A stretch of DNA of 64,000 nt from Eledone cirrhosa (Eukaryota): contig OZ024747.1 of NCBI GenBank assembly GCA_964016885.1, positions 35,960,001 through 36,024,000 of the forward strand, in the 5' to 3' direction. The notes below the pieces were generated by a model. The model saw only the letters and a program-made list of their open reading frames with translations. It did no database searches and was not told the DNA's origin. This document shows positions 7,331-54,307 of this stretch, one piece after another. The number at the start of each line of letters is the position of its first letter. Within the stretch, counting starts at the first letter, position 1. The position numbers and the translations under genes are program-made.

Positions 7331-7343
7331 ATATATATATATA

Positions 7344-8968: not shown

Positions 8969-8972
<4 letters not shown>
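7344..8972. repeat. Tandem repeat, 615-bp unit, about 2.65 near-identical copies
   Basis: CTCTAATTCGATATGTG recurs at 7344, 7959 and 8574; bounded by (TA)n on both sides. Confidence 0.95.
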
Positions 8973-9053
<81 letters not shown>

Positions 9054-14336: not shown

Positions 14337-14353
14337 TTATTATTATTATTATT

Positions 14354-16168: not shown

Positions 16169-16180
16169 ATTATTATTATT

Positions 16181-16897
16181 ACAGTTGCATTTATATTGCT
16201 TTATGTTCATACGAGTTATCACCAAGTCACGACCAGTGACCTAAAGAGACAACAAGGTCCGCCATGTTCAAGAAAGAACATACATACTCACACATGCATC
16301 TTTAGTGTTTAGACTTGTGATGTACTTATATTGACAGAATCTTCCTTAGTATATGGGCAGTTCCCATTAGTAATATCCTTTGTATTTCTCCTATACGCGA
16401 GTTTCCTGGGATTTGCGATAAGTAATCATTAGACCCCTTAGTTATCATTCCCAGAGCGCCTACAACCACTGGTATTGTTTTAGTTCTCAATTTCTACATT
16501 TTTCCAATTTATATCTCCAATTTTTCAAATGTTTTTATAGATACATTCTTGTCTATTGGAACCGACATATCAATTAGCAGGCATACCCTCTTTTTAAAGT
16601 CCTTCAATATTATATCATGTCTATTTGCATCTTTTTTTCGGTCGGTTTGGATGCTAAAGTTCCACAAGATTGAGATGTGATCTTTTTTGAGTATGGGAGG
16701 TGGTTGATGATCCCACCAATTCTTTTGATGGAGCAGGTCAAACTGCTTACACATTATCCAATGTATGTATTGTGCAGCTCTGTCATGCCTGTTTAGGTAT
16801 TCTGTCGGAGCTATAGGACTGCACATTGAAATTATATGGTCAATGGTCTCTGGTTGTTTTTTGAATACACGGCATAATGGGCTGCATCCATTTTTTA
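16181..16897 (-). mobile_element. R4/Dong-type family B, copy B2 (short 3' fragment)
   Basis: Homologous to 29235-29967; (ATT)n on both sides. Confidence 0.92.
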
Positions 16898-16920
16898 TTA
16901 TTATTATTATTATTATTATT

Positions 16921-19375: not shown

Positions 19376-19376
<1 letters not shown>
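16921..19376 (-). mobile_element. R4/Dong-type family A, copy A1 (5'-truncated; open frame 19370-17004, 788 aa RT+ZnF+RLE)
   Basis: Near-identical to 50574-53031. Motifs QGDSLSP, LFMDD, CRICGEREETVAHIVSEC, RHD and RPDLVVVD...DVACP...KINRY. Confidence 0.95.
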
Positions 19377-19407
<31 letters not shown>

Positions 19408-19692
19408 GGCGACCTACGTAGGAAATCGTATTATCGTGAGCTCCGCAAAGGTTTGTTATTTCCGTTTGTTTAAAAATTGCCATTTATGGAAAATTTTATT
19501 GTAAACTGTTTATAAGCACACATACATTGTTTTCCGAAAAGGACACCCAAAAACATTGGGGCCTTGTGCCCAAAATTTTAACTTTTATTATCCAAAAATT
19601 TCTTTGAAAAAAAATGGCTAATTCCCCTCTGCACGAAGCAGCTGAAAGCCTTCCTCACAAAATAACACCTCACACCGACACCACCATTGTAA

Positions 19693-21577
19693 ATGTTACT
19701 ACGTTTGCCAACACAAAAAAAAAAAAAATATATAAGCAGTAGCAATATTTTAAATTTGTCTCAGGCAGACATTCATTTCCCGCCATTACCAATGACTGCA
19801 GGTGTTAAACCCTCCACCACCACCACCACCGCGACAACCACCACCACCACCACCACCGCGACACCAGAAACAAAAGAAGAAAAAAATAAATTAACTCGTG
19901 ACGTCCAAATGAAATCAAGCAAAATGGACTCTTCCCCACCAAAGACGACTGACGTCACCAACACCACAACTGAAAATAAAATTAATATTAACGATAGCAA
20001 CAACAACAACAATGACATTATAAAACCGACCCTCAGTTTCGCCATCGTAGCAAAACAATTCGAAGCGTTCACGGTAACTCAAGAAGATTTAGAAAATGCC
20101 AAACAAATGGTAAAGAAAGATGGGTACAGGGTCAGCCTCACCCCCCCCCCCCCCCACCTAATAAAATGGAGCATCGGCGCCTGTGCACCGTGTCGTATAG
20201 AACAATAAATGTAAAATCGCGCCGAGTGGAACGGGCATCCGAGTCCCAAATCCAAAAAGCTTTGGGACATGTGTGGGCAAGAAAAACCCACATCAAACGT
20301 GGGCAAAAGTATGGAACCGTGGATGTGTTCTTTGAAACACCAGAGGAGGCTAGAGAACACACCATGGCCCCATTAAAAAGTGACGACCTCACACTCGTCC
20401 CAAGCTATTGTGGCCAGAGACTCGTAAAGATCAAGGTGACCCACGTTCCACCGGCCATCGAAATTCCCTGGCTAATAGCGGCTGTCCTCGCCGGCATCGA
20501 AGCCAACACGAAAATAATAGCAGTAGCAAAAGAAAAGCAGGAAAACTGGTCCGGATCTGGGATGGAGCTCCTGATCCAAGCGGACCAAAAAAGCATTGAG
20601 GAGATCCCAGAGGTAATAGACCTCACTGACGGCAGCCACCTCACGGTAATTGTCGAGGGCAGAAGACCTAGGTGTGTCGTTTGTGGTGAAGGAACCCACC
20701 TAAGGGCTTTCTGCCCTCAGGCTAAAAGGTTGAGGCCACCTCTCCTACCCACCCCAGTGACACAACCATCAACACCACCAGTAGCAGAGATGGCAGCAAC
20801 AACTGTAGCAGCAACAACAGAAGCAACTATAACAGCAACAACCCCAGCAACAGTAGCAAAACCAACACCACTACCACCCAACGCTTCAGAACTAGCACCA
20901 GCGCCTACACCATCCACCACACCGCAACCAAAACTAACGGCTGTGGAGGATTTTCCACTCCCCGGCCTATCACAACTGGAGACAGATTGTGACGACGAGG
21001 AGTGGGAAACGATATCCGGAAAAAAAAAAGAAACCAAAAAAGAAAAAATTCTCTTCCTTCCCCCTCCAAAAACAAAATACGGAGGGAAACAAATAAACTA
21101 AGAAACAAAAAAGTTAGGACAGATATGCCACCATCCACACCAGCATCACCAACCCAAACACCAACACCATCACCATCATTATCCCCAGCACCACCATCAC
21201 CTACACCACAAAAGTCACCAAAATGCGAAACAGAAACAAACCCACAACAAACGCAAACAAAACAAAACAACCAAAACGATACACACTACACAGCATTAAA
21301 ATTGAACTACAAGCAATTATTACACTACATCCAACACAACACCAGCGTCACAGAAAAAGACTACACAACAACCCCAAAATTCACACCACCTCCACACATA
21401 CAAATCACTCGCATCACACAGAAAACGTACATGACACTAAAACAAAAATTCCCCAAAGACATCGGAGACTTCCGACAAGCACTCTCCAGGAGGATTTATA
21501 AGGACATCCTTCCTGAGGAGGCCACAAGCAGTGAAAAGGATGGAAAAGCCGTCCTTCCCCTACGAGAAGTAAGGTAA
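19693..21577 (+). pseudogene. T1 ORF1 (RRM-like region + CX2CX4HX4C zinc knuckle, low complexity), split by two homopolymer frameshifts
   Basis: ORFs 19693-20208, 20166-21101 and 21002-21577; CVVCGEGTHLRAFC; colinear with intact ORF1 34360-36456. True start is uncertain. Confidence 0.85.
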
Positions 21578-24500
21578 GTGGTCTTTCCCATCTTTTCCAC
21601 TCCTTTTCAACATGACCTCACTCAGAGTAGGCAGCATAAATGCGCGTGGCTTGGGGTCGTCATGGAAGCAGGGCCACCTGCTCAACGACCTCAGGTCACT
21701 AAACATAGATGTAGTGGCCATCAGCGAGACCAGAATCTCCGAAGCACAGGCTTTCGCACCGATCTTCGGTGGCTACGATGTGTACGCATCTCCCAGCCGT
21801 CCGGGATCGGGGGGAGGAGTTGCTGTGCTTTTTCGGAGAGGTTTGGATCTTGCCATACGGGCCATCTTCCTGGACCCAGAAGGTAAGTTGGTGGTGCTGG
21901 ACGTGACCAGCGGAGACGGGCAAGCTTTCAGGTTAGTGGCCGTCTATGCCCCGACAGGAGCAGGGCGGCCTGATTTCTTCCGGCGTCTGGAGACCTTTCT
22001 TGGAACGTCCCGCTCTTTAGTGTTAGTGGGCGACTGGAACGGGATCTTAGATGCACGCTGGGATTGTGTGGGATTAGTGGATAGGGAAGGATGGTGCAAG
22101 AGTCTCACCAACCTGCTCAGACGTTTTGAACTGTCTTACAGGTACCGAATGGATTTCCCGAATGTACCAATGTGGACTTGGACAAATCGCATAGGGTCAT
22201 CCAGATCATATCTAGATAGAGTATTTTGTAGGGAAATAGATAGGTCTAGCATAGGCTGTCCACAATTCAAGATAGTCAGCTACACGGACCACAAATTCGT
22301 GATCTGTGTGCTTGACTTAGATAGGCTTCATAGACGAGGACCCGGCTACTGGAAGTTAAACGCGTCCTTACCAGCGCGCAAGGCCTACAGAGACCGGATT
22401 AGCGAACTAGTTAAGCGGGCGTTGACGGGGGCCATCGTCAACAACAAGTGGTGGTTTGCTCTGAAAAGAGCAATTAGAATAGAGTCCATTAGGTTTAGTA
22501 AGACTTTAGCAATAGAGAAAAATAGAGCAGTGGGAGAATTAGTTAGAAAATTAGATGAGGCGCTTAGCAAAGGCATCGCGACCAACGTACTTGCGGCGAA
22601 ATTGGCCCTTGACCAATTCTTCAATGCAAAGCACGAAGGCTGCGTTGTCAGAGCTAGGGTGCGTGCTCTCAGACACGAGGGGACGAAAGCCGTTCAATGG
22701 GCCCGAGTGGCGGAGGCGCGTCGTGGCAACAAAGCGACGATCCGGTCTTTGGTGGACCACGACGGGCGCATGCTACTCGATCCCGGTCAAATGTGTGAAG
22801 CTTTTCAGCGACACTTCGCTCAACTGTTCGGGGGCAGTGGCGGGCCGGATGGAGGGATGGACTTTAGTGTCTACCTCGACGGACTGCCGCGGCTTTCGGC
22901 CACTGAGGCGGAGTGTTGCGAAAAGCCGATAACAACCACTGAAGTACGGGATGCAATGACTAGTTGCACAAGGGGTAAATCGCCTGGTTTGGATGGTCTG
23001 CCCTATGAACTTTACGTACAAAAGCCAAACTTGTTCGGAGGCCTCTTGGCGGACGTCTACTGCAACTGGCAACAGAACGGGAGAATTGCCAGCTCTGTGA
23101 GCCGAGGAGCGGTGGCGCTGCTGAGAAAGGATCCGAACAAGGGGGATAACATAGATAATTTTAGGCCCATAACTCTGCTAAACACAGAGTTCAAGATTTT
23201 GGCCAAGGTGCTAGCAAAGAGGTTGGCGCTTGTCGTAGGTGGTCTGGTGGGAGAGGCACAGACATGCGCCATTCCCGACAGATCCACCCACGACAACCTC
23301 CACCTCATGCGATACATCGTGGAGAGGGTAGCTAGGGAACCTGGCACGGGTGGGTCTTTGATCAATTTAGATCAGTCGAAAGCCTTCGATAGGGTCGACA
23401 ATCGTTACCTAACGGCAGTCCTGAGGGCGGCTGGCTTTGGGCCCGTCTTCAGAGGCTGGATCGCTGCCATGCACAGCGACATCTGCTCTGTAGTGAGAGT
23501 GAACGGTCACCTTTCGGAACCGTTCAACATCATGCGCTCGGTCCGCCAAGGATGTCCCCTCTCGTCCCTATTGTACGTATTGACTCTCGAGCCATTACTG
23601 CACAGACTGGAGACGTTGAGGGGGGTCCCGCGCGAACTAGGATGCGGAAGATCCGTGTCAGCATATGCGGACGATGTCACCGTAGTGGTGTCGAACGCCA
23701 AACACATCGAGGCGATCGGCACTACACTAAGAGAATACGAAGCGGTGACAGGAGCAATGATCAACCAGGAAAAGTCAGTGGGCCCGCAGCTCGGCACCTG
23801 GAGAGGCAGGTCTATGCCGTCCAACAGCGTCGTCGGGCGCTGGACGGACGGACCGGTTAAATTGCTAGGGGTCTGGTTCGGTCCAGACCTCCAGACGGAC
23901 AAAAACTGGGACGAGGTGACGAGCAGGGTGGCTTCTCTCACCTAGAAATGGGCGGAGAGGAAGCTATCCTTGAAAGGTCGAGCGGAGGTGGCGAATGCGT
24001 ACATCGCATCCGTCATCTACTACCGCCTGACCGTCGTACCTTGTCCTAAGCCCCGCCTGACTGCGCTGGAGCGTTAGCTCTTTCGCTTCTTGTGGAAGGA
24101 ACGCGCTCCAATGGTCAGGCGGTCCATCTGCTGTCAACACCCGCTACGTGGAGGGCTGGGCATGCCGTGGCTGATGATGCGCAGACACGCGCTCAGGCTA
24201 CGACATCTCCACCTCTTCCTCGACGGTGATCAGGTGTGGTCGCCGTTTGCAAGACACGTTTTTCCCCAGCTCGTCTCTTTGACGGAGCTGCAGTCCTGGG
24301 TCAAGCGAAGACCGAGAGGGAGCGCTTGGAGACTGGAATGTCTTCAGGCGCTCACAGCCCTCGGCAAATCGGGCAATGTGATCGGTGGAAACTCCACCTT
24401 GGCGTTCTATAGGGGATTAGTGGAGGGGAAGAGCGACGACGTACTTGGAGAAACTCTAGGCGTCGACGAAAATCAACTAGCCAATCTCTTCGGAAGGACT

Positions 24501-25192
24501 TTCGGGCCGGGGCCTATGGACAACTTCCAGAAATCCCTGGCCTGGCAGTGCTACCGAGGAGCTTTGCCAGTTCGGGATAAACTCTACAGGCATGGAGGTG
24601 CCGTCAGCCGGGCATGTCCGAGATGCGCGCAGGGCGACGAAACCGTCCTGCACGCACTCGTCCAGTGTCCGAGCATTGCTGACTTGTGGGTTTATGTCGA
24701 ACACCTGCTGTCACGTGTAGGACGGATCCAGCTATCAGCTGAGTCCATCGTGAGGATTGCCCCGCCCCCTTCCTTTAGCCCGGAAGGGCAGGCAGTTTTT
24801 AATCTGTCTGGTGGCCATGGCGAAAGAGATAGTATGGTGGACACGTTTGAAAGGGCTGAAGACGAGCACTTACCTCTTCGGTGATGCCCTGATTAACTTT
24901 TTAAAATTTCATTTGAAAAGGAAAATCAGGGTAGAGAGGGAAGTGCTCTCTTCCCAGCATTTTGTTGAAAGATGGGTGAGAGAAGCAAGTATGGCCCGAA
25001 TGAATGGGCCTTCTCTGAGTATGTGTCTGTAAATTAAAGGTGGAAAACTGGGAGAGGGCACTTGCCCTGGTGGTCAGGGCCACTGTGGTCTTTTAATGGG
25101 CTTTCTCCACAAATGTCCCTTGGAAGTCTCCCCCCTATTGGGGAATTTTTCTTTGTTATTTTATTTCAACCTCTGTTTTTTTTTACACGCAG
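21574..25192 (+). other. Predicted GT-AG intron spanning all of T1 ORF2
   Basis: Donor AAG|GTAAGT at 21574 overlaps the ORF1 stop. Acceptor CTCTGTTTTTTTTTACACGCAG| ends at 25192. AATAAA at 25266. Prediction only. Confidence 0.55.
21612..25032 (+). pseudogene. T1 ORF2 (APE endonuclease + RT + C-terminal Cys/His motif), disrupted
   Basis: SINARGL, AISET, VYAP, GDWN, YLDRVF, TDHK, KSPGLDG, FRPITLLN, QGCPLS, AYADD, CPRC...ETVLHALVQC. Stops at 23943 and about 24075, frameshift at about 24800. Confidence 0.93.
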
Positions 25193-25279
25193 AAATGCCC
25201 ATTTGTACCGTCCTGCATTGTCCTGCACTGTCCTTAATGTCTACTTTATGTAAACCCTTGTGGTTAATAAAGAAATCAC

Positions 25280-25343
<64 letters not shown>

Positions 25344-25345
<2 letters not shown>

Positions 25346-28300: not shown

Positions 28301-29170
28301 TGTTATTGTTGTTGGCTATGTTGGTGGTGGTGCTGGGGCTTTTTATATTGTTGGTGAGGAAGGGGGGAGCCAGCAGTGCCGTAGTTGTTGACGTTTGGCC
28401 GGTGGCCAGGTCACTAAGTCAATCTATTTATATATTTTGCTAGCCTCTCCCTTGTCTAGTGATACCGCCACCTTCCCCTTTCTTGAGTTAACAGGGGAAT
28501 AGTGGTGGTAGCAATGAAGGAGTGGTTGCGGCGGTGATGGGATAGTGGTAGCAATGATGGATGGAGTGGTGGCGGCGGTGGCGTTGTCGTTACTGAGTTT
28601 TGTGATATGTAGTATCTATGAGTTTGTGTCACGTATGTTTAATATATGTGTTAAATAGACTAATTTTGTTTGATATGTAGTATCTATGCGCTTGTGTCGC
28701 GTATGTTGAATATATATTGTGTTGTCATATTCCCGTCAAATTGGAATTAAACAGTTTGTTAAAACTTGAGACAATAATAATAGTAATTATTATAATGATG
28801 CTGGGATTGGTGGTGGTGAATTTGCCGTTATCTGGCTGTTATATTTAGTGTGATGGGGTAGGTGGTGTATCAAGTTTCTGATGTTGGTGAAATTGCTGTT
28901 ATTTGGCAGTTCTACATAGTGTAGACAGAGGGTGTTTTCTTCCATTTATAACCATTTTCTTTTTTGAATACAAAATATATAATACAAAATTGAATATTTG
29001 AGTGATATAACAATATAATATGGATCCGAAAGTTTATGAGACTTGCTTCGGTGGTTTATGCATCATTTGTACTAAGAATGGTTATTTCACAATTGATTTA
29101 AATATGTTAAAAATCAAAATCTTACGGGAGCGATTCCATAACCTTCTACCACCACGTGCGTCTTCTTCCC
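25344..29170 (-). mobile_element. R4/Dong-type family B, copy B3 (complete 5' end, ~1.17-kb deletion of ZnF+RLE region, frameshifts)
   Basis: Colinear with B4 except for the junction CAACCAGTGA|TGCATTC at about 25402. Confidence 0.93.
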
Positions 29171-29234
<64 letters not shown>

Positions 29235-29235
<1 letters not shown>

Positions 29236-34121: not shown

Positions 34122-34359
34122 TTCTTCTTATTATTATTATTATTGAATGCCATGGTTGACGGAGGCTCGGCTCTGTAAGGTATAGTAATTTTTAACCGTT
34201 AAAACAATTGTAAATTGTTTAAAACTTGAACCAAATTGTTGATAAAGACACCCTCCTCCTCGTGAGAGGGGTCTTTCTGTCCGTTATTTGGCCCTTCGGG
34301 GTTAAATAGCCAGTTATTTGGGTTTTGTATCCAAAATTTCATTTTAAACAAAAAACAAC

Positions 34360-36456
34360 ATGGCTACGAAAAAGAAATTTCATACGTCACTCCCACTCAT
34401 TCCGTCTTCTTCTTCCTCAATCACCACTACAGCAGAGAGAAGATTGTCTCTCTCCCTCCCTTCTTTAAATGTGTCTCTCTCCCTCCCTTCTCTTTCGCAA
34501 GCGACGAAAGAAAAGAAAAGTCTCGTGCAAAGCGTGCAAGGTTTCTCCACGACGACGACGACAGCGACGAAACAGGTGTGCGGGAAATACGAAAACCCAG
34601 TTCATTCGTCTGACGTCAGGAATAATAGCAGTAGCAGCCGTAATAACAACAGCAACAGTGACAATGAAAACAACAGTAGCAGCCGCAACAGCATCACCAG
34701 CAGCATAAACAACAACAGCATTAGCAGCAGCAACACCAACAACAACCACAGCAACAGCGGCGGAGGCAGTAGTCGTAGTACCTGCAGCAACAACAAAAGT
34801 ACCAGCAGCTCTGACGACAACAACAACAGCAGAGAAAAACCAATCTCATTTGCAGGTATTGCGAAAAACTTGGAAACAATCCTCATAACAAATGAGGAAT
34901 TAGAGGAAGCGAAGAAGATGGTGACAAAGAAAGGACACCGAGCAATCTGCAAGGCAGCGAAAAATTTTTTCGAAACCCAAGAGCACTGTACGGTCACGTA
35001 CCGTACAGTAAGTACAAAATCCCGTAGGGTGGAAAGAGCCACAGAGGCCCAAATACAAAAAGCCTTGGGGTCTGTGTGGCAGCGGAAAACGCACATCACC
35101 CGAGGCAAAAAATATGCCACCGTAGACGTACTTTTTGCCACACCCCAGAAGGCAAAGGCCCAATCAGTAGTGACCCTAAGGAGCGAGGAAATAGTGTTGG
35201 TGCCCTCCTACTGTGGGCAAAAAATTGTGAGGGTCAAACTGACCCACGTCCCCCCCGGAATGACCCCTTCTTGGCTGGCCGCGTCTGTCCTCGTCGGAAT
35301 CGAGGACAAAACAACTGTACTGCAAGTACAGAAAAAAGTAAGAGAAGATTGGGTCGGCTCCTCCATTGAGATGCTAATCCAAACCAACCAGGAGTGCATC
35401 GAAGCTATCCCGGATGTGATAGACTTCGATAACGGCACTCAACTGCCCATAAGTGTTGAGGGCAAACGCCCGAAATGCTTTCGCTGTGGATCGAAGACTC
35501 ACCTCAGGGCCTTCTGCAACGAGAAGACCCTGAGAAAGGAGAAAACCCCCCTCCTTCCGAATCCGGCTCCACGGCTACCAGCAACAGGACAAGCGGCAAC
35601 CAGGAACGATAGGCCCGTGGCACCCATACCCACTCCACGGAAATCAAAAACAGCAGCAGCAGTGGAAATACTAACAACAACAACAGCAATACCAAATGCA
35701 GCTGCAACAGAGACTCCAGTGCAAACATCACCAACAACAACAAGTGAAAGAGTGGAGTTGGTACCCCTCCCCGACCTCACAGAATCAGACATGGAGTGTG
35801 AGGTGGGAGAGAAATGGCAAAAGATCGTAAGAAGGCACAAACGCAGAAGCAGCGCATCGTCGCCTTTGAAAAGGGAGGAAAGAAATGAGAAAAGGGTAAA
35901 GTCTACTGCAAAGAGACCCACAGCAGCAACAACACCAACACCATCACCACCCACACTAGCGCCACCATCACCACCGGCGACAACCCCACCGCCAACAACA
36001 CCTTCAACACCACCACCACAAGCACCAACATCGCAAACACAACAACAAAACACACACACCCAGCAACAACGACAAGAAAATAGCAGAACCACACCCCACC
36101 CCCAGAAAAACAAATGCACGGCAATAAATACACACAACAAGAAACTAATGACTTACATAATTGAACACACAGACATTTCACAACAGGACTACATAATACC
36201 AGCACCAATCAAAACGCCAACTAACATAAGACTGCTAAAAATAGCACAGAAACAATACACAAATATTAAAACGAAATTCCCCAACGCAGTTGGTGATTTC
36301 AGGGACCTAGGAGGAACCATCAATCGAAGAGTATACTCAGACATTCTCTTAGAAGAGCCGACGACCAGCCGAAGGGACGATTCAACGGTCCCTTCACCAG
36401 ACGATCAAGTGAAAAGGGATGTAAAAACCATCCCTCCTCTACCAAAAGTACGGTAA
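34360..36456 (+). CDS. T2 ORF1 protein, intact 698 aa (Asn/Ser-rich, RRM-like, CCHC knuckle, Thr/Pro-rich)
   Basis: Uninterrupted ORF with RGKKYATVDVLFATP and CFRCGSKTHLRAFC. Confidence 0.9.
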   Translation: MATKKKFHTSLPLIPSSSSSITTTAERRLSLSLPSLNVSLSLPSLSQATKEKKSLVQSVQGFSTTTTTATKQVCGKYENPVHSSDVRNNSSSSRNNNSNSDNENNSSSRNSITSSINNNSISSSNTNNNHSNSGGGSSRSTCSNNKSTSSSDDNNNSREKPISFAGIAKNLETILITNEELEEAKKMVTKKGHRAICKAAKNFFETQEHCTVTYRTVSTKSRRVERATEAQIQKALGSVWQRKTHITRGKKYATVDVLFATPQKAKAQSVVTLRSEEIVLVPSYCGQKIVRVKLTHVPPGMTPSWLAASVLVGIEDKTTVLQVQKKVREDWVGSSIEMLIQTNQECIEAIPDVIDFDNGTQLPISVEGKRPKCFRCGSKTHLRAFCNEKTLRKEKTPLLPNPAPRLPATGQAATRNDRPVAPIPTPRKSKTAAAVEILTTTTAIPNAAATETPVQTSPTTTSERVELVPLPDLTESDMECEVGEKWQKIVRRHKRRSSASSPLKREERNEKRVKSTAKRPTAATTPTPSPPTLAPPSPPATTPPPTTPSTPPPQAPTSQTQQQNTHTQQQRQENSRTTPHPQKNKCTAINTHNKKLMTYIIEHTDISQQDYIIPAPIKTPTNIRLLKIAQKQYTNIKTKFPNAVGDFRDLGGTINRRVYSDILLEEPTTSRRDDSTVPSPDDQVKRDVKTIPPLPKVR

Positions 36457-36490
36457 GTGGTCTTTCCCATCTTTTACACTCTATTTTAAA

Positions 36491-38942
36491 CGACCGACGT
36501 GCTTGCGGCGAAATTGGCCCTTGACCAATTCTTCAATGCAAAGCACGAAGGCTGCGTTGTCAGAGCAAGGGTGCGTGCTCTCAGACACGAGGGGACGAAA
36601 GCCGTTCAATGGGCCCGAGTGGCGGAGGCGCGTCGTGGCAACAAAGCCACGATCCGGTCTTTGGTGGACCACGACGGGCGCATGCTACTCGATCCCGGGC
36701 AAATGTGTGAAGCTTTTCAGCGACACTTCGCTCAGCTGTTCGGGGGCAGCAGTGGGCCGGGTAGAGGGATGGACTTTAGTGTCTACCTCGACGGACTGCC
36801 GCGGCTCTCGGCCACTGAGGCGAAGTGTTGCGAAAAGCCGATAACAGCCGCTGAAATAAGGGAGGCAATGACTGGCTGCACAAGGGGTAAATCGCCTGGT
36901 TTGGATGGTCTGCCCTATGAACTTTACGTACAGATGCCAGACTTGTTCGGAGGCCTCTTGGCGGACGTCTACTGCAACTGGCAACAGAACGGGAGAATTC
37001 CCAGTTCTGTGAGCCGAGGAGCGGTGGCACTGCTGAGAAAGGATCCGAACAAGGGGGATAACATAGACAATTTCCGGCCCATAACTCTGCTAAACACAGA
37101 GTTTAAGATTTTGGCCAAGGTGCTAGCAAAGAGGTTGGCGCTTGTCGTTGGTGGTCTGGTGGGAGAGGCGCAGACATGCGCCATTCCCGACAGATCCATC
37201 CACGACAACCTCCACCTCATGCGATACATCGTAGAGAGGGTAGCTAGGGAACCTGGCACGGGTGGGTCCTTGATCAATTTAGATCAGTCGAAAGCTTTCG
37301 ATAGGGTCGACCATCGTTACCTAGCGGCAGTCCTGAGGGCGGCTGGCTTTGGGCCCGTCTTCAGAGGCTGGATCGCTGCCATGCACAGCGACATCTGCTC
37401 TGTGGTGAGAGTGAACGGTCACCTGTCGGAACCGTTCAACATCATGCGCTCGGTCCGCCAAGGATGTCCCCTCTCGTCCCTCTTGTACGTATTGACTCTC
37501 GAGCCATTACTGCACAAACTGGAGACGTTGAGGGGGGTCCCGCGCGAACTAGGATGCGGAAGATCCGTATCAGCATATGCGGACGATGTCACCGTAGTGG
37601 TGTCGAACGCCAAACACATCGAGGCGATCGGCACTACACTAAGAGAATACGAAGCGGTGACAGGAGCAATGATCAACCAGGAAAAGTCAGTGGGCCTGCA
37701 GCTCGGCACCTGGAGAGGCAGGTCCATGCCGTCCAACAGCGTCGTCGGACGCTGGACAGACGGACCGGTTAAATTGCTAGGGGTCTGGTTCGGTCCGGAC
37801 CTCCAGACGGACAAAAACTGGGACGAGGTGACGAGCAGGGTGGCTTCTCTCACCCAGAAATGGGCGGAGAGGAAGCTATCCCTGAAAGGTCGAGCGGAGG
37901 TGGCTAACGCGTACATCGCGTCTGTCATCTGCTACCGCCTAACCGTTGTACCTTGTCCTAAGCCTCGCCTGACTGCGCTGGAGCGTTTGCTCTTTCGCTT
38001 TTTGTGGAAGGGACGTGCTCCGATGGTCAGGCGGTCCATCTGTTGTCAACACCCGCTACGTGGAGGGCTGGGCATGCCGTGGCTGATGATGCGCAGGCAC
38101 GCGCTCAGGCTACGACATCTCCACCTCTTCCTCGACGGTGATCAGGTGTGGTCGCCGTTTGCTAGACGCGTTTTTCCCCAGCTCGTTTCCTTGACGGAGC
38201 TGCAGTCCTGGGTCAAGCGAAGACCGAGAGGGAGCGCCTGGAGACTGGAATGTCTTCAGGCGCTCACAGCCCTCGACCAATCGGGCAATGTGATCGGTGG
38301 AAACTCCACCTCGGCGTTCTATAGAGGATTAGTGGAGGGGAAGAGCGACGACGTACTTGGGGAAACTCTAGGCGTCGACGAAAATCAACTAGCCAATCTC
38401 TTCGGAAGAACTTTCGGGCCGGGCCTATGGACAACTTCCAGAAATCTCTGGCCTGGCAGTGCTACCGAGGAGCCTTGCCAGTTCGGGATAAACTCTACAG
38501 GCATGGAGGTGCCGTCAGCCGGGCATGTCCGAGATGCGCGCAGGGCGACGAAACCGTCCTGCACGCACTCGTCCAGTGTCCGAAAATTGCTGACTTGTGG
38601 GTTTATGTCGAACACCTGCTGTCGCGTTTAGGACGGATCCGGCTATCATCTGAGTCCATCGTGAGGATTGCCCCGCCCTCCTCCTTTAGCCGGGAAGGGC
38701 AGGCAGTTTTTATCTGCCTGGTGGCCATGGCGAAAGAGATAGTATGGTGGACACGTTTGAAAGGGCTGAAGACGAGCACTTACCTCTTCGGTGATGCTCT
38801 GATTGACTTTTTCAAATTTCATTTGAAAAGGAAAATCAGAGTAGAGAGGGAAGTGCTCTCTTCCCAGCATTTTGTTGAAAGATGGGTGAGAGAAGCAAGA
38901 ATGGCCCGAGTGAATGGGCCTACTCTGAGCATATATCTGTAA
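36491..38942 (+). pseudogene. T2 ORF2 remainder (RT and C-terminus, no APE; one frameshift near 38420)
   Basis: ORFs 36499-38631 and 38427-38942; AYADD and CPRC motifs. Confidence 0.92.
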
Positions 38943-39201
38943 ATTAAAGGTGGAAAACTGGGAGAGGGCACTTGCCTTGGTGGTCAGGGTCATTGTGGCT
39001 TTTTACTGGGCTTTCTCCACAAATGTCCCTCCGAAGTCTCCCCCCTATTGGGGAATTTTTCATTGTTATTTTCATTGTTATTTTTGTTACATCCTCTGTT
39101 TTTGTTTTTTACACGCAGAAATGCCCATTTGTACCGTCCTGCATTGTCCTGCACTGTCCTTAATGTCTACTTTATGTAAACCCTTGTGGTTAATAAAGAA
39201 A

Positions 39202-39251
<50 letters not shown>

Positions 39252-42200
39252 GGTCTAAGCGGACGTATTTTGCTCGCCCACAGTAAGTCGCTTTATTTGC
39301 CTGTTTAAATTATTTGTTGTTAAATAATTCTTGTTGTGTAAGGGATATAAGCCCTTAGACTTTGCCCCGTGAATGGGAAAGTATAATAATTGGGCATTTT
39401 GGCCCAAATATTTGAACTTTTTTTTACATGTTAAATAATTTACGAAGAAAAAAAAAATAACAAATACAACAACAATATCAACACCACTAAAATGAAAACA
39501 AATAGCGACAACACCAACAGCAAGAATACCAACTGCACCGAGAACAACGGTGGCAACAAAGACAACAATGATAACAGCGACAGTGCTAACAACAACACCA
39601 ACAAGAACAACGTCAACAACACCCCCAACGGAAACAAGACCACTTTCGCTGCGGCAGCAGCAAAAAAGAGGCCATGCTTCAACATGGACCTCTCAAACAA
39701 ATATGAAAAGTTGGCCCAGGCATGGAAACTCATCAAGCAAGTGCAAACTTGGGCCTACTTAACTGTCCCGGTAGAAGCTATTGAGGCAGTGGAGCGCAAA
39801 ACGGTGCATTATAGATGCATCTGACCACAAACCAAAAGGGCAGCGTTAATCCCACAAGAAGATGTCGATGTCGCGCTGAGGTGCCTCAGAGAAGACACCC
39901 AGTACATAGAGAGGGGCAGAGAGTACGGCACCATTTCGGTGTTGTACAAGTCAGAGGCCCTCGCTATGAAACACGCTATGGCTCCTTACAAAACCAGCAA
40001 GGTCATAATGTACCCCTCCCACATGGGAAAAAGAGCGGCCCGTCTCCGCATTCCCAGAATCCCACCAGGACTTGACATGTGGTGGCTTCTGGGATGAGTG
40101 ATTGTGGAGGGGACAGATACAGTCCCTATAGAAGTGACCAGAACGGCCAGAAAGGACTGGTCCGGGGTTGACCTGGAGATCCTTCTCCAGATCAGGCCCG
40201 AGAATGTGAACACAATCCCAGACCTCATCCGCTGTCATGGGACTGTCATTCACATTATGACGGAAGGCAAAAGGCCGCAGTGTTTTGTTTGTGGGGAAAA
40301 AACCCATTTGCGAGCCTTCTGCCCTCAACTGCTGAATGAGGCAAGGGGTCGAAAGGCTCCACTGCTGCCGACGCTGGGGCGAGGACCACAACCAACACCT
40401 GCACTGGCAAAACCACCAACAACAACACCAATAGAAAGACCACCAGCAACATTGACCACCCAGGGGGGAAACGAGGAAAGCTGTCAAATTCCCCCTCCCC
40501 CAAAAAATACACACACCAATAAAACCTTAAACATACATACAGACACACTTACAGACACAGACCCCTCATCTACCAGTAGTGAAGATGAGGGAAATCCCAA
40601 ATCCCCCAAAATACAAAAAAGGAAACACAAAAAGAGAAAAAAAACACAACAAAGCATAAAAGCAGACAATAAAAAACGCAGACGCCACCCACACAAACAT
40701 CTCTCCAATAACACCAACATCAACACCACCATCACCATCACCAGAATACCCCAAACGCAAACAACCGAAACAGACGCAAGAACAAATATACACACAAACA
40801 TCTGAAACCACAGACACTGCACTCACGACAAACACAGATACAACCGAAACAACGCCACCAAAACATTCACCACCACGGCCACGCAAACAAATAAAATCAC
40901 ACCAACAAAATATACAAAACTCCGTGCTCGTCAGGGGAGGGGCCAACAAGGAACTGATGGCCCTCGAAAGGACGAAGTGAAAATATTCAAAAAGTGGGGA
41001 AATTTTTAAATCGAGCACATTTCGCGTGCCGGAAGATTTGGTTCTGGTGCGAATGTCGCTCGACATATTCAAAGAAATACGAGACAGATTTCCTCGGGAC
41101 GTGGGAACCACGAACGTAAAACCCACTTCACGACTTTTAAAGGGGTTCCCAAAAGAAACACCACTAACTATGGAGGTCGAACAACCCGACCTTCACAAGA
41201 GCCCGGAAGGTAAGTAAACCTTCCTCTCTCTCTGTTTAACCTGCCAACATGGCCGTATTAAGAGTAGGATGTTTAAAAGTTCGAGGCCTGGGATCGTCCT
41301 GAAAGCAGGGTCAGCTGCTCAACGACCTCAGGTCTATAGAAATGGATGTAATTGCAGTCAGCGAGACAAGGATTTCTGACATGCGCGCACTAGCCCCCAT
41401 TTTCGACGACTATCAGATCTTTTTATCTGTTAGCTGGCCGGGAATGCGAGGCGGGGTGGCAGTGCTGTTTAGGAAAGGCCTGGATCTCGAGGTAAGGTCG
41501 ATCTTCCGGGACCCAGACGGGAAGTTGGTGGTCCTGGACGTGAAAAATAATGGTGGTGCCTTTAGACTGGTGGCCGACTATGCTCCTACTGGGGCAGGAC
41601 GGCCGGACTTCTTTAGACGCCTGGAAGCCTTTCTGGGTACGTCTCGCCCTTTATTGTTAGCGGGGGACTGGAACGGCATCTTAGACGCACGCTGGGACTG
41701 TGTGGGAGTATCCGATAGGAGCGGGGGGTGCAAAAGCCTCAAGAACCTGATCAGCCAGTTCCAACTGTCTGACAGGTACCGACTAGATTTCCCTAATGCG
41801 CCAGTGTGGACCTGGGCTAACCGGAAAGGGTCATCTAGATCGTATATAGACAGGATATTCATTAGGAAAATAGACAGAAATAGTGTAAGCTGTCCACGTT
41901 TTGAAACGGTCGCATATTCAGATCAATTAGTTTGTGATCTGTATGGTCGACCTAGATAAGACGCGTAGGTTAGGACCTGGTTACTGGAAGCTAAACATGT
42001 CATTTCCGGCACGTAATGCTTACAGGGACCAGGTCAACAATTTAGTTAAGAAAAAGTTGACAAGGGGTGTCGTCAACAATAGATGGGGGGGGGGGGCTCT
42101 CAAAAGACAGATTAGAGTAATGTCGAATGAGTTTAGCAAAGAAGTAGGATTAGAGAAAAATAGAAAGGAGGGGGAGTTGGTAGATAAGTTAGACGAGGCT

Positions 42201-44661
42201 ATTGGTAGTGGCATTGCAACTGACGTGCTAGCTGCGAGAAGTGGCGGGTCAGAGATGGTGGCGGACTTCAGTCCCTACCTCGATGGCTTGCCGCAACTCT
42301 CGACGGCTGACACTGGGCGCTGCGAAAGGCCAATTACTTCAGCCGAGATTCACGATGCCCTTGCAGGCTGCATGAGGCGCAAGTCACCCGATTTAGATGG
42401 TCTGCCCTACGAGCTTTACGTAAATATGCCAGGTTTGTACTCCAAACTTCTCGAATCCCTCTACTGCAACTGGCACAAAACGGGAATATTCCCAGTTCTG
42501 TGAGCGTAGTGACGCTGATAAGGAAAGACGAGAACAAGAGGACACATTAGACAATTTCAGGCCCATAACTCTGCTCAACACAGAGTTTAAGATTGTTGCC
42601 AGGGTGTTAGCGAAGAGTTTGGAGCTTGTCGTCGAGCATTTGGTCGGGGAGGCGCAAACTTGCGCAATCCCAACAAGGTCCATACACGACAACCTCCACC
42701 TAATGCGATACATCATAAAGAGGGTAGGGTGTAAACCTGGCTTCGGTGGGGCTCTGATCAATTTAGATCAATCGAAAGCATTCGATAGGGTCAACCATCG
42801 GTACCTGGAGGCTGTCCTCAAGGCGGCTGGCTTCGGCCCCGTCTTCAGAAGCTGGATCGCTGCAATGCACAGCGGCACCTGCTCTATGGTCAAAATTAAT
42901 GGCCACCTCTCGGAACCGTTTCAGGTCTCCCGATTGGTCCGTCAAGGGTGCCCTCTCTCCTCCCTTCTGTACGTATTGACTCTCGAGCCTTTACTGCGGA
43001 AGCTGGAGCTGCTGCAGGGCATCCCGCTCGAACCGGGACGCGGAAAGGCTGTGTCAGCTTATGCGGACGACATCACCGTGATGGTGTCGGACACCTCAGA
43101 AATCGAGGTGGTCGGCAACTTATTGGAGGAATAAGAAAGGTTGACGGGAGCAAAACTTAACCCGGAATAGTCAGTAGGCTTGCAACTCGGTACCTGGAGA
43201 CGCAAGTCCATGCCGTCCAACAGGGTCGTTAAGCGCTGGACGGACGGACTGGTAAAGTTGCTAGGGATTTGGTTCGGGCCAGACCTCCAGCTGGATAAGA
43301 ATTGGGACGAGATGACGGGAAGGGTATTCAGTCTCACCCAGAAATGGGCTGGGATGAAGCTATAACAGAAAGGTCGGGCGAAGGTGGCGAACGCGTCCGT
43401 CATCTACTACCGTCTGACTGTCGTCCCTTGCCCCCGTTCGCGCCTTGCCATCTTCGAGCGGCTCCTCTTCAAATTATTGTGGAGGGGTCACGTTCCGCTG
43501 GTGAGGCGGTCCATCTGCTGCCAGCACCCTCTACGTGGAAGGCTGGGCATGCCGTGGCTAATGATGCGCAGGAACGCGCTGAGGCTGCGGCATCTCCAGA
43601 TATTCTGCCTAAACGGTGAACAGGTGTGGTCGCCGTTTGTCAGACGGGCCTTTCCGCAGCTCGTTTCTTCGACTGAGTTGCAGCCTGGGTCAAAAAGAGA
43701 CCGAAACTGGGTGACTGGCATCTGGAATGTTGCCAGGCACTCACTGCCCTCTGCCAGGCGGGCAATATGGTCAGTGGAACTTCCACTCTCGAGTTCTATA
43801 GAGGATTAGTGGTGGGCAAGTGCGACAACGCACTCGGAGAGGCTCTGGGAGTCAACGAAGTCGAACTAACCAGTCTGTACCGGAGGACTTTCGAGCCGGG
43901 AACGATGGATAATTTCCAAAAATCCCTCGCTTGGCAGTGCTACCGGGGGGTACTGCCGGTTCGAGATAAACTCTACAGGCACGGAAGTGCTGTCAGACGA
44001 ACTTGCCCGACATGCTCGCAGAGCGACGAAACGGTTCTGCACGCACTCGTTCAGTGTCCGTGCACTACTGACTTGTGGAGTTATGTTGAACAGCTGTTGT
44101 CGCGTGTAGAACGGATCCGGCTATCGGCCGAGTCCATAGTGAAGATCGACCCGCCGCCTTCTTGTGGCCAGGAAGGGCAGACAATTTTCCTCTGACTGGT
44201 GGCAGTAGCGAAAGAGGTTGTATGGTGGACGAGGTTGAAAGGACTGAAGACAGACACTTTTCTCTTCGGCCAATCCCTCATCAACTTTTTCAAGTTTCAC
44301 TTGGAAAGGAAGGTGAGGGTGGAGAGAGAAGTGCTGCCCTCCAGTACATTTGCTGAAAGGTGGGTGAATGTGGCGAGAATGGCCCGTGTGAGTGGGCCTA
44401 CTCTGGGTAGGTAAATTTGTATAGGATAGGGTGCTCTTCCAGGGTGCTCTCGAAGCGTCGGGTCGTTCAGGACTGGTGGGGTACCTGAGCGAACCCTATT
44501 GGCGAATTTTTTCTTGTTGTAATGCTCTTGTTACTTTATTGTTGCTTTGTTATTGTTAATATGTCTATTCATATTGTTTACTCGATTTTTCTGTAAAACC
44601 CCACTGTCCAAGTCTTTTGTATTGTCCACTATATGTCGGCCCTTGTGGCCAATAAATGAAA

Positions 44662-44663
<2 letters not shown>
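39252..44663 (+). mobile_element. Tx1/L1-type LINE copy T3 (divergent family, ORF1 type 3), degenerate
   Basis: CFVCGEKTHLRAFC; ORF2 from ATG 41249 to about 44414 with APE/RT motifs, many stops and an internal deletion near 42240. Ends AATAAATGAAATC before (ATT)n. Confidence 0.92.
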
Positions 44664-44717
<54 letters not shown>

Positions 44718-47700
44718 GGCGACCTACGTAGTAAATCGTATCTTCGTGAGCTCCGCAAAGGTTTGTTATTTTCAATTGTTCAAAATTGCCATTCATGGAA
44801 AACGTTATTGCTAACTGTATATAAGTGCACATACATTGTTATCTGAAAAGGACACCCAAAAAGATTGGCGCCTTGATCCCAAAATTTAAACTTTTGTAAT
44901 TATCAAACAAAAATATTTCTTTGAAACATCATGGCTGACTCAGAGTCACTCCTTTCTCACAAACTAACACCTCACACCGACACCACCATTGTAAATATTA
45001 ATACGTTTGCCAACACAAAAGAAATTTAAGCAGTAGCAATATTTTAAATTTGTCTCAGGCAGACATTCATTTCCCGCCATTACCAATGACTGCAGGTGTT
45101 AAAGCCGCCACCACCACCACCCCCGCGACAACCCCCTCCCCCCAACCACCAGCACGACAACCCCCTCCCCCCAACCACCACCACCGCGACAACAGAAACA
45201 AAATAAAAAAAAATAAATTAACTCGTGATATCGAAATGAATTCAACCAAAATTAACTCTTCCACACTGAACACCACTGACGCCACCACCACCACAACTGA
45301 AACTAAAATTAATAACGATAACAACAACAGCAACAATGACATTAAGAAAACCAGCCTGAGTTTTGCAAGAGTAGCAAAACAGTGCGAAGCATTTCACGTA
45401 ACACATGAGGAATTAGAAGAAGCGAAAAAAATGGTAAAGAAAGATGGGAACAGGGTCAGCCTCCCCCCCCCCCCCCACTTAATAAAATGGAGCATCGGCG
45501 CCTATGCACCGTGTTTTATCGAACAATTAATATAAAATCGCGCCGAGTGGAACGGGCATCCAAGTCCCAAATCCAAAAGCTTTGGGACATGTGTGGGCAA
45601 ATAAAAACAAACATCAGACGTGGGCAGAAGTATGGAACCGTGGAGGTGTTCTTTGAAACACCACAGGAGGCTAGAGAACACTCCATGGCCCCATTAAGAA
45701 GTGACGACTTCACACTCGTCCCAAACTATTGTGGCCAGAGACTGGTAAACATCAGGGCCACCCACGTTCCACCGGCCATCGAAATTCCCTGGCTAATAGC
45801 TGCCGTCCTCGCCGGCATCGAAGCCAACACCAAGATAATCGAAATAGCGAAAGAAAAGCAGGAGAACTGCTCCGGATCTGGGATGGAGCTCCTGATCCAA
45901 GCGGACCAAAAAAGCATTGAGGAGATCCCAGAGGTAATAGACCTCACTGACGGCAGCCACCTCACCGTAATTGTCGAGGGTAGAAGACCTAGGTGTGTCG
46001 TTTGTGGTGAAGGAACCCACCTAAGGGCTTTCTGCCCTCAGGCTAAAAGGTTGTGGCCACCTCTCCTACCCACCCCAGTGACTCAACCATCAACACCACC
46101 AGCAGCAGAGATAGCAGCAACAAATGTAGCAGCAACAACAAAAGCAACTGTAACAGCAACAACCCCAGCAACAGTAGCAAAACCAACACCACCACCACCC
46201 AACGCGCCAGAACTAGCACCAGCCCATACATCATCCACCACGCCACAAACAAAACTAACGCCTATGGAGGATTTTCCAATCCCCGGCCTATCACAACTGG
46301 AGACAGATTGTGACGACGAGGAGTGGGAAACGGTATCAGGAAAAAAAGAAAAAAAGAAACCAAAAAAGAAAAAAATTCTCTTCCTTCCCACTCCAAAAAC
46401 AAAATACAGAGGGAAACACATAAACTATCAAACAAAAAAGTTAGGACAGATATGCCACCATTCACACCAGCATCACCAACCCCATCACCCCAAACACCAA
46501 AACCATCAGCATCATTAACCCCAACACCACCATCACCTACACCACAGAAGTCACCAAAAAGCGAAACAGAAACAAACCCACAACAAACACAAACAAAACA
46601 AAACAACCAAAACGATACACACTACACAGCATTAAATTTGAACAACAACCAATTATTACACTACATCTAACACAACACCAGCATCACAGAAACAGACTAC
46701 ACAACAACCCAAAAGTTCACACCTTCTCCACACATACAAATCACTCGCATCACACAGAAAACGTACATGACACTAAAACAAACATTCCCCAAAGACATCG
46801 GAGACTTCCGACAAGCACTCTCTAGGAGGATTTATAAGGAAATCCTTCCGGAGGAGGCCACAGGCAGTGAAAAGGATGAAGAAACCATCCTTCCTCTACG
46901 AGAAGTAAGGTAAGTGGTCTTTCCCATCTTTTCCACTCCATTTCAACATGACCTCACTCAGAATAAGCAGCATAAATGCGCGTGGCTTGGGGTCGTCATG
47001 GAAGCAGGGCCACCTGCTCAACGACCCCAGGTCACTAAAGATAGATGTAGTGGCCATCAGCGAGATCAGAATCTCCGAAGGACGGGCCTTAGCACCGATC
47101 TTCGGCGCCTACAATGTGCACGCTTTTCCCAGCTGTCCTGGATCGGCTGTGCTTTTTAGGAGAGGTTTGGATCTCGCCATACGTACCATCTTCTTGGACC
47201 CATAAGGTAAGTTGGTGGTGCTGGACATCCAGCGGTGACGGGCAAGCTTTCACGCTAGTGGCCGTGTATGCCCCGACAGGAGCAGCAGGGGGGGCCTGTA
47301 TTTCTTCCGGCGTCTGGAGACCTTTCTTGGAACGTCCCGCTCTTTAGTGTTAGTGAGCGACTGGAACGGGATCTTAGATGCCCGCTGGGACTGTGTGGGA
47401 TTAGCGGAGAGGGGAGGAGGGTGCAAGAGCCTCACCAACCTGCTCAGGCGTTTTGAACTGTCTGACAGGTATCGATTAGATTTCCCGAATGTGCCAATGT
47501 GGACTTGGACAAATCGCATAGAGTAATAGATAGGTCTAGCATAGGCTGTACACAATTCGTCATCTGTGTGCTTGACTTAGATAGGCTTCATAGACGCGGA
47601 CCCGTCTACTGGAAGCTAAACGCATCCTTACCAGTGCGCAAGGCCGACAGGGACCGGATTAGCGAACTAGTTAAGCGGGTCTTGACGGGGGACATCGTCA

Positions 47701-50537
47701 ACAACAAGTGGTGGTTTGCTCTGAAAAGAGCGATTAGAATAGAGTCCATTAGATTTAGTAAGGCTTTAGCAATAGAGAACAATAGAGCAGAGGGAGAATT
47801 AGTTAGAAAATTAGACGAGGCGCTTTGCAAAGGCATCGCGACCAATGTACTTGCGGCGAAATTGGCCCTTGACCAATTCTTCAATGCAAAGCACGAAGGC
47901 TGCGTTGTCAGAGTGAGGTTGAGTGCTCTCAGACACGAGGGGACGAAAGCCGTTCAATGGGGCCGAGTGGCGGAGGCGCGTCGTGGAAACAAAGCCACGA
48001 TCCGGTCTTTGGTGGACCACGACGGGCGAATGCTACTCGATCCCGGGCAAATGTGTGAAGCTTTCCAGCGACACTTCGCCCAGATGTTCGGCGGCAGCGG
48101 CGGGCCGGATCGAGGGATGGACTTTAATGTCTACCTCGACGGACTGCCGCGGCTCTCAGCCACTGAGGCGGAGTGTTGCGAAAATTAATAACAGCCGCTG
48201 AAGTACAGGAGACAATGACTGGCTGCACAAGGGGTAAGTCCCCTGGTTTGGATGGTCTGCTCTATGAACTTTACGTACATATTCCAGACGTGTTCGGAGG
48301 CCTCTTGGAGGACGTCTACTGCAACTGGCAACAGAACGGGAGAATTCCCAGCTCTGTGAGCCGAGGAACTGTGGCGCTGCTGAGAAAGGATCCAAACAAG
48401 GGGGATGACATAGATAAGTTTAGACCCATAACTCTGCTAAACACAGAGTTCAAGATTTTGGCCAAGTTGCTAGCAAAGAGGTTGGCGCATGTCGTTGGTG
48501 GTCTGGTGGGAGAGGCGCAGACGTGCGCCATTCCGGACAGATCCATCCACGACATCCTCTACCTCATGCGATACATCGTAGAGAGGGTAATTAGGGAACC
48601 TGGCACGGGTGGGTCCTTGATCAATTTAGATCAGTCGAAAGCTTTCGATAGGGTCGACCATCGTTACCTAGCGGCAGTCCTGAGGGCGGCTGGCTTTGGG
48701 CCCGTCTTCAGAGGCTGGATCGCTGTCATGCACAGCGACATCTGTTCTGTGGTGAGAGTGAACGGTCACCTTTCGGAACCGTTCAACATCATGCGCTCGG
48801 TCCACCAAGGATGTCCCCTCTCGTCCCTTTTGTACGTATTGACTCTCGAGCACTAACTGCACAAACTGGAGACGTTGAGGGGGTCCCTGGCGAACTACGA
48901 TGCGGAAGATCCGTGTCAGCATATGCGGACGATGTCACCGTAGTGGTGTCGAACGCCAATCACACCGAGGCGATCGGCACTACACTAAGAGAATACGAAG
49001 CGGTGACAGGAACAATGAGCAACCAGGAAAAGTCATTGGGCCTGCAGCTCGGCACCTGGGGAGTCAGGTCCATGCCGTCCAACAGCGTCGTCGGGCGCTG
49101 GACGGACGTACCGGTTAAATTGCAAGGGGTCTGGTTCGGTCCGGACCACCAGACGGACAAAAACTGGGGCGAGGTGACGTGCAGGGTGGCTTCTCTCACC
49201 TAGAAATGGGCGGAGTGGAAGCTATCCCTGAAAGGTCGAGCGAAGGTGGCTACCGCGTACATTGCGTCCGTCATCTACTACCGCCTGACCGTCGTACCTT
49301 GTCTTAAGCCCCGCCTAACTGCGCTGGAGCGTTTGCTCTTTCGCTTTTTGTGGAAGGGACGCGCTCCGATGGTCAGGCGGTCCATCTGCTGCCAACACCC
49401 GCTACGTGGAGGGCTGGGCTTGCCGTGGCTGATGATGCGCAGACACGCGCTCAGGCTATGGCATCTCCACCTCTTCCTCGATGGTGATCAGGTGTGGTCG
49501 CTGTTTGCTAGACGCGTCTTTCCCAGCTCGTCTCCTTGACGGAGCTGCAGTCCTGAGTCAAGCAAAGACCGAGAGGGAGCGCTTGGAGATTGGAATATCT
49601 TCAGGCGCTCACAGCCCTCGACCAATCGGGCAATGTGATCGGTGGAAACTCCACCTTGACGTTCTATAGAGGATTAGTGGAGGGGAAGGGCGATGACGTA
49701 CTTGGAGAAACTCTAGCCGTCGACGAAAATCAACTAGCCAAACTCTTCGGAAGAACTTTCGGGCCGGGTCCTATGGATACATTCCAGAAATTCCCGGGCT
49801 GGAAGTGCTACGGAGGAGCTTTGCCAGTTCGGGATAAACTTTACAGGCATGGAGGTGCCGTCAGCCGGGCATGTCCGAGATTCGCGCAGGGCGACGAAAC
49901 CGTCCTGCCCACACTCGTCCAGTGTCTGAGCATTGCTGACTTGTGGGTTTATGTCGAACACCTGCTGTCGCGTGTAGGACGGATCCAGCTATCAGCTGAG
50001 TCCATCATGAGGATTGCCCCGCCCTCTTCCTTTAGCCGGGAAGGGCAGGCAGTTTTTATCTGTCTGGTGGCCATGGCGAAAGGGATAGTATGGTGGACAC
50101 GTTTGAAAGGGCTGAAGACGTGCACTTCCCTCTTCGGTGATGCCCTGATTAACTTTTTCAAATTCATTTAAAAAAGGAAAATCAGGGTAGAAAGGGAAGT
50201 GCTCTCTTCCCAACATTCTGTTGAAAGATGGGTGAGAGAGGCAATAATAACCCGAGTGAATGGGTCTACTCTGAGTATGTGTCTGTAAATTAAAGGTGGA
50301 AAACTGGGAGAGGGCACATGCCCTGTTGACAGGGTCACTGCGGCTTTTTAATGGGCTTTCTCCACGAATATCCGTCGGAAGTCACCCCCCTATTGGGGAA
50401 TTTTTTCATTGTTCTATTTTTAAATCCTCTGTTTCTTATTTTTTACACGCAGAAATGCCCATTTTTACCGCCCTGCATTGTCCTGTACTGTCCTTAATGT
50501 CTACTTTATGTAAACCCTTGTGGTTAATTAAGAAAGC
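44718..50537 (+). mobile_element. Tx1/L1-type LINE copy T4, full length, degenerate (same family as T1)
   Basis: Same 5' end GGCGACCTACGTAG as T1 and colinear throughout, with several small deletions and stops. Confidence 0.93.
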
Positions 50538-50573
50538 ATTATTATTATGATTATTATTATTACTATTATTATT

Positions 50574-54284: not shown

Positions 54285-54307
54285 CTATTATTATTATTAT
54301 TATTATT

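Follow-up and report, generated by a model that had tools for sequence, protein, structure and literature searches.

A stretch of 64,000 nucleotides (nt) from Eledone cirrhosa (assembly GCA_964016885.1, contig OZ024747.1, positions 35,960,001 to 36,024,000 of the forward strand), referred to here as the window, contains four copies, T1 to T4, of long interspersed nuclear elements (LINEs) with two open reading frames (ORFs), and (ATT)n bounds every one of them. These L1/Tx1-type elements carry a conserved 5' splice site (donor) at the end of ORF1, and comparison among copies makes the chance about even that it is used to splice out all of ORF2, yielding a messenger RNA (mRNA) for ORF1 only. The donor stands before or inside the ORF1 stop codon, and candidate acceptors occupy two sites according to lineage. 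A preliminary description of the window had proposed that ORF2 is an intron giving an ORF1-only mRNA. That proposal has gained comparative support from the distribution of AG dinucleotides and stop codons, and three of its details, the acceptor assigned to T3, a second C-terminus of ORF1 and the spliced retrocopies, failed or found no support.

Copies were searched for in a genome of 3.0 Gb. The family is large and young: the 23 nt that follow 25192 have 7002 exact matches, and the best matches to the T1 3' end are mostly 96-99% identical. The donor with its adjoining spacer has 4595 exact 24-mer matches, so that copies of the ORF1/ORF2 junction amount to about two thirds of the 3' ends, a proportion of long copies that is high for a LINE. 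An intact copy (L251) has an ORF1 of 697 amino acids (aa), an ORF2 of 1139 aa, and AATAAA followed by (ATT)n at its end. Pfam assigns the domains Exo_endo_phos, RVT_1 and zf-RVT to ORF2, and its best PDB match is L1 ORF2p (E 5e-52, residues 5-854), with R2 far lower. The elements combine the apurinic endonuclease (APE) and L1-closest reverse transcriptase of the L1 group (L1/Tx1) with two ORFs, AATAAA and a simple-repeat tail. Each of the 16 A- and T2-type copies in which the 5' end was read begins right after (ATT)n, and the 30 best 3' ends all continue into (ATT)n. This is a target-sequence preference of the kind found in the Tx1 clade, of which the elements are likely members. Homologues, some of them 39-44% identical, bear no informative names, and no named Tx1 reference was among them. 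A diverged relative of type F (L162:8941-9200) has a terminal repeat of CTAT type, not (ATT)n, which suggests a change of target.

The motif G/GTAAGT, reported in the preliminary description at 21574, 36453, 41210 and 46910, is present at all four positions. When one copy each of lineages A, B and C is aligned, all nine columns of the donor AAGGTAAGT are identical, compared with 22 of 87 flanking columns and, in the endonuclease region of ORF2, 102 of 219 third codon positions. Copies of the T2 type read ACG/GTAAGT. The ORF1 stop lies inside the motif or immediately after it, in two phases (AG/G TAA in T1, T2 and T4; G/GT AAG TAA in T3), and the motif stays fixed as the phase changes; the donor is conserved as nucleotides and not as codons, as had been argued. 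Independence across three ORF1 types had also been claimed, but the window holds only two independent cases because T1, T2 and T4 share one module of ORF1 end and ORF2. A third is lineage C, whose copies come from elsewhere in the same genome. Like copia-type elements, these LINEs have a conserved 5' splice site where the structural gene ends. Of 17 loci in distant relatives (23-31% identity), 6 have a GTRAG motif near the ORF2 start, no more than 300 nt upstream or 30 nt downstream of it. One distant LINE (L268:1374-1397; 27% ORF2 identity) has an ORF1 end reading GG/G TAA GC, the donor-like layout seen in lineage A, and its ORF2 ends in TGA.

No 3' splice site is common to all lineages. Two sites are found in complementary distribution, and every family-level 3' type examined has an AG at the ORF2 stop or at a distal site. 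TAG is the ORF2 stop in 41 of 43 B-cluster ends, in 6 of 7 B' ends and in all 7 D ends. It also closes ORF2 in the one copy each of E, E2, F and G, and in H and J. All non-A types recovered have TAG, and 82 of 86 A-cluster ends have TAA. In the frame set by a phase-1 donor, a stop stands at codon 1-2 past the ORF2 stop in 10 of the 11 3' types (0/11 and 1/11 in the other two frames), with TAA, TAG and TGA all in use. Over 218 columns of the untranslated region (UTR), a level of at least 8/11 is reached only at this stop site and at AATAAA. No long overlapping frame is available as its cause (22 codons open). The donors of B, B' and C are in phase 1 and belong to elements with TAG ends (whole-element pairs B/B, B/B' and C/D), those of A and T2 are in phase 2 and belong to elements with a TAA end and a distal CAG, and G and H ends have both AGs. 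As evidence that an acceptor has been selected, this pattern is moderate and falls short of proof, because the types have common ancestry, several are represented by a single copy, and F, J and the copy L159 are exceptions. A tree of ORF2 ends groups A/G/H/J, D/E and the B types (two short rows have false long branches, and the T1 row is offset by 2 nt); it is unrooted, so we only infer the order of AG gain and loss.

The distal candidate acceptor is a U-rich tract with ACACGCAG, which ends at 25192, 39118 and 50452 as previously described, and AATAAA follows 74 nt after 25192, in agreement with the distance of about 75 nt given earlier. It is present in all of the 30 best 3' matches, which were chosen by likeness to T1, and is missing in sister lineages, where D reads CAC and E has no AG. 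A join at 25192 would add NAHLYRPALSCTVLNVYFM and a stop, the peptide already predicted. The mini-exons of T1 and T4 do differ at three third positions, two of them synonymous, but the coding constraint read from this does not extend to the family: distinct variants in 76 same-length copies comprise 8 synonymous and 21 non-synonymous changes, and the synonymous share matches the 28% expected under neutrality. A common Ala/Val change is among the shared variants, and length and frame differ in older subfamilies. A common change of the stop from TAA to TGA, in 19 copies, preserves it. A conserved second C-terminus of ORF1 finds no support, and splicing in other lineages would nearly rebuild the native end. 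At the equivalent place T3 has TGTAAA, which had been taken for a decayed AG; 29 of 30 T3-family copies read TGTAAA and the other TGAAAA, so it is the normal state of the family. The first AG after the U tract of T3, at 44612, was considered as an acceptor and not favoured, as it is absent in the sister B' type.

Under splicing of the whole ORF2, unspliced two-gene RNA would stay beside a short ORF1-only mRNA, and a minority or a majority of transcripts would lose ORF2. The older acceptor would be the AG within TAG, the stop codon of ORF2, and the stop one or two codons on would nearly rebuild the native ORF1 end (GK and stop becoming GR, G, V or D and stop). In the lineage of T1, T2 and T4 TAG would have changed to TAA and the CAG at 25192 would act as acceptor, with 19 residues added to ORF1; this peptide looks incidental, a probable by-product of the shifted acceptor. 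The ORF1 message would have its stop in the last exon and a short 3' UTR, and would presumably serve to make surplus ORF1 protein. The unspliced RNA would be the sole source of ORF2 protein and the sole form copied into DNA. Two-gene LINEs make much more ORF1 than ORF2 protein, and the usual explanation is that the second ORF on the one unspliced RNA is translated inefficiently. Splicing would be a second route to this excess, by which a LINE would have independently reached the solution of Copia elements and the host spliceosome would control transposition. Testing would be simple in a young family with thousands of near-full-length copies and exact predicted junctions.

Several results weigh against this reading, first among them the lack of spliced copies. 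The expectation that spliced RNA could retrotranspose found no support, since none of the 7002 genomic 3' ends adjoins a donor (donor-to-25192 join in 0 of 28 candidates). Donor-side candidates spliced to anything numbered 0 of 30 read (of 47), 0 of 16, 0 of 11 and 0 of 12; none of the 17 unread matches adjoins a last-exon match, and the patterns would miss an A/T2 donor joined to the AAG at 25039, a C donor joined to D/E ends, and a G/C join at ORF2 +19 in the subfamily of T1 itself. The B donor was joined to the ORF2-stop site in 0 of 8 candidates, judged from five upstream letters. In human L1 the spliced copies known as spliced integrated retrotransposed elements (SpIREs), which keep ORF2, amount to about 2% of full-length copies according to the accessible part of PMC5860796, as against no genomic copy with an exact splice junction in these searches. 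In addition, the ORF2-stop acceptor has a weak pyrimidine tract, type F lacks the stop at codon 1-2 after ORF2, the copy L159 combines a phase-2 donor with a D end and has no stop within 60 codons, and the counts over the 11 3' types overstate independence because of shared ancestry. The neutral mini-exon points the same way, as does the finding of GTRAG at the ORF1 stop in only 1 of the 17 distant metagenomic loci, for which reason the donor at this place seems restricted to the present LINE subgroup.

The absence of spliced retrocopies is a weaker objection to an ORF1-only RNA, since such an RNA encodes no enzyme. No recurrent ORF2 deletion, a sign of mobilisation in trans, was found at two places among 51 deletion rows from 286 sequences, the repeats being of the same place. 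This fits a strong cis preference, and as ORF2-defective copies are not amplified, missing spliced retrocopies weigh only moderately against the ORF1-only RNA. Three exact-looking junctions (L065, L088 and L230) were rejected as splices because they lack GT or AG and show 1-3 nt of microhomology. Contigs of four runs of unrecorded kind were also placed on T1; the joint of 21573 to 25193 was not among the 15 joints listed (297 more were present), and in run X4 none of the 6 loose ends listed, of 21, lay at 25193. In the same run, the summed contig depth was 12,000-87,000 over part of ORF1 (20792-21379) and near 9,000 in the final 170 nt (25175-25278), compared with 100-800 over ORF2, and run X1 was without such peaks. 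The peaks may reflect a highly expressed transcript that contains an ORF1 fragment.

The main rival, possible if rather unlikely, holds that the donor is an unpaired binding site for the U1 small nuclear ribonucleoprotein, which guards a long RNA from premature cleavage and polyadenylation or tunes its output, that hardly any splicing takes place, and that the 3' AGs are incidental. It accounts for a conserved donor, a variable acceptor and the lack of spliced copies. Further motifs that resemble the donor also favour it: A, T2 and B, with three different 5' UTR types, have one 30-45 nt from the 5' end (19451, 34180 and 39283), and B, B2 and F have one directly behind the stop of ORF2. The 5' motifs, with no YAG before ORF1 in lineage A, also count against splicing of ORF2; lineage B has a GT-AG stretch there, about 76 nt long. 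U1 binding prevents premature termination in EVD, a Copia element of Arabidopsis, as far as the accessible part of PMC5580714 states. An unpaired U1 site, however, leaves unexplained why the ORF2-stop TAG is kept where no donor follows it (B', D, E, G and H), why the stop after ORF2 is found in one frame only, and why a distal CAG is present in the TAG-less lineage. U1 protection may coexist with splicing, as in EVD.

It is improbable that the motif owes its conservation to something else, such as an RNA structure or termination-reinitiation between the two ORFs, and has only the look of a splice site. The motif overlaps the ORF1 stop and lies within a hairpin in lineages B and C, a similar 7-mer is expected by chance about once per few elements, and a second copy stands inside ORF2 at 21883. 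The hairpins of B and C, however, pair different bases and lineage A has no stable one, and a conserved hairpin over the donor was rejected as not common to the lineages. The motif remains fixed while the stop shifts by phase, and the invariant stretch is exactly what we take to be the 9-nt complement of U1. Least probable is a mini-intron of 52-57 nt that runs from the donor to an AG just inside ORF2 and fuses the two ORFs in frame: all three lineages have a pyrimidine-rich spacer after the donor and AGs at ORF2 +14 and +19 permit an in-frame join for either phase, but the spacer end is a start codon context conserved in all lineages, 4595 copies retain the exact donor and spacer, none of the 30, 16, 11 and 12 donor-side candidates read has lost the spacer, and as the fused RNA would itself code for a reverse transcriptase and should be copied in cis, the absence of copies nearly excludes it.

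The T2 family is the largest, with 2341 pattern matches, and 99 of 100 listed matches are of T2 type. Up to 36409 its ORF1 is 64-70% like that of lineage C; beyond that point it resembles T1, the join to the T1-type module lying 43 nt upstream of the donor. The seam lies exactly at a C-type donor and directly after an AG of an A-type ORF1, and T2-type elements (L196-L225) occur in head-to-tail arrays with a period of about 6.05 kb. Such a join would result if a read-through RNA were spliced from one tandem neighbour to the next, and the seam is a hint of this from one event; template switching at a 2-nt homology would give the same join. The wider picture, to which we give a little less than even weight, is of a LINE clade with an intron comprising the whole reverse transcriptase gene, an acceptor AG in the ORF2 stop, a downstream shift of that acceptor by 160 nt in the lineage that has been most successful, and ORF1 swaps by splicing between tandem neighbours.

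HAL1 (half-L1) elements are genomic ORF1-only elements of L1 type. They resemble the predicted message in being an ORF1-only product of an L1-type element, but they are genomic; no ORF1-only genomic copy was found here, so any ORF1-only form would be RNA only. A spliced subgenomic Gag mRNA has been reported in Drosophila copia, with an intron of about 3 kb, and an shGAG RNA in plant Ty1/Copia elements (accessible parts of PMC5580714 and bioRxiv 10.1101/2023.12.20.572708). In those elements the spliced RNA gives the structural RNA-binding protein and the unspliced RNA the enzymes and the genome, a division only predicted here. They are, however, long terminal repeat elements with one Gag-Pol frame in which splicing creates a stop, whereas the present LINEs have two ORFs and a pre-existing ORF1 stop. 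The human SpIREs, described as dead ends in PMC5860796, involve functional splice signals in the RNA of a LINE of the same broad group, where the signals here are candidates; SpIRE splices lie in the 5' UTR or between 5' UTR and ORF1, whereas here the candidate intron is ORF2 itself. Kibi, in (TC)n, and Koshi, in (TTC)n, are microsatellite-targeting LINEs of the Tx1 clade, which often targets repeats (PMC4494074). Both are two-ORF LINEs of APE type that sit in a microsatellite, as do the present elements, which have (ATT)n at either end and occur in head-to-tail arrays. Kibi and Koshi have other targets, and splicing of element RNA is not described in the accessible part of that source. Introns of TART have been reported in antisense RNA (PMC1636488, in part), and L1-Tx1 and Dong-R4 elements are active in Octopus vulgaris, with no mention of splicing or introns in the accessible main text (PMC13282606). 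A whole-ORF2 intron in a LINE was not described in the literature searched, the coverage of which left out Repbase Reports and most subscription papers.

The features of the four copies are collected in Table 1. T1 and T4 belong to one family. The ORF2 of T1 is damaged by stops and one frameshift (1139 aa in intact relatives), T2 lacks the endonuclease part of ORF2, and in T3 a 14-nt deletion after 44405 took out the ORF2-stop TAG of the family, the candidate acceptor of lineage B.

Table 1. Coordinates of the LINE copies T1 to T4 and their predicted features in the window.
Feature	Position	Strand	Details
T1, full-length two-ORF L1/Tx1-type LINE, lineage A	19408..25279	+	5' end after (ATT)n also in other full-length copies
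(ATT)n tracts flanking T1	19377-19407 and 25280-25344		
T1 ORF1	19614..21577	+	terminal residues LPLREVR, then stop; three broken frames in this copy
T1 5' splice-site motif AAG/GTAAGT	21571..21579	+	GT at 21574; ORF1 stop TAA 21575-21577 inside; phase 2
T1 pyrimidine-rich spacer	21580..21611	+	upstream of ORF2 ATG
T1 ORF2	21612..25032	+	endonuclease, reverse transcriptase, zinc-binding C-terminal part; stop TAA 25030-25032
T1 site of putative older acceptor	25030..25037	+	TAA (TAG in sister lineages); stop 25035-25037 in phase-1-donor frame
T1 CCCC-loop-GGGG inverted repeat, 3' UTR	25130..25143	+	retained by most lineages (alignments)
T1 U-rich tract and candidate acceptor CAG	25146..25192	+	CAG at 25190-25192; only in A/G/H clade
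T1 predicted last exon	25193..25279	+	AATAAA at 25266-25271; 7002 exact copies of first 23 nt
T2, hybrid family copy	34145..39203	+	donor 36453; candidate acceptor 39118
T2 ORF1	34360-36456	+	intact
T2 seam to A-type module	after 36409		ORF2 5' part deleted after 36490
T3, lineage B copy	39252..44663	+	donor 41210 (phase 1); ORF2 ATG 41249
T4, older lineage A copy	44718..50537	+	donor 46910; ORF2 stop TAA 50286-50288; candidate acceptor 50452

In the 3' UTR, the hairpin at 25130-25143 and the end motif CCCTTGTGGYYAATAAA (25255-25271) are kept in most lineages and the sequence between them is variable; both are candidates for recognition of the 3' end. On the minus strand, single-ORF LINEs with a reverse transcriptase (14337-19376, 25326-34144 and 50551-54666) use the same (ATT)n target as T1 to T4, so that two unrelated LINE groups are stacked in one microsatellite array. 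Their C-terminal motif is presumably a restriction-like endonuclease of Dong/R4 type. At 7343-8979 the window has a tandem duplication with a period of 615 nt and 99.5% identity, which is possibly recent or an assembly artefact.

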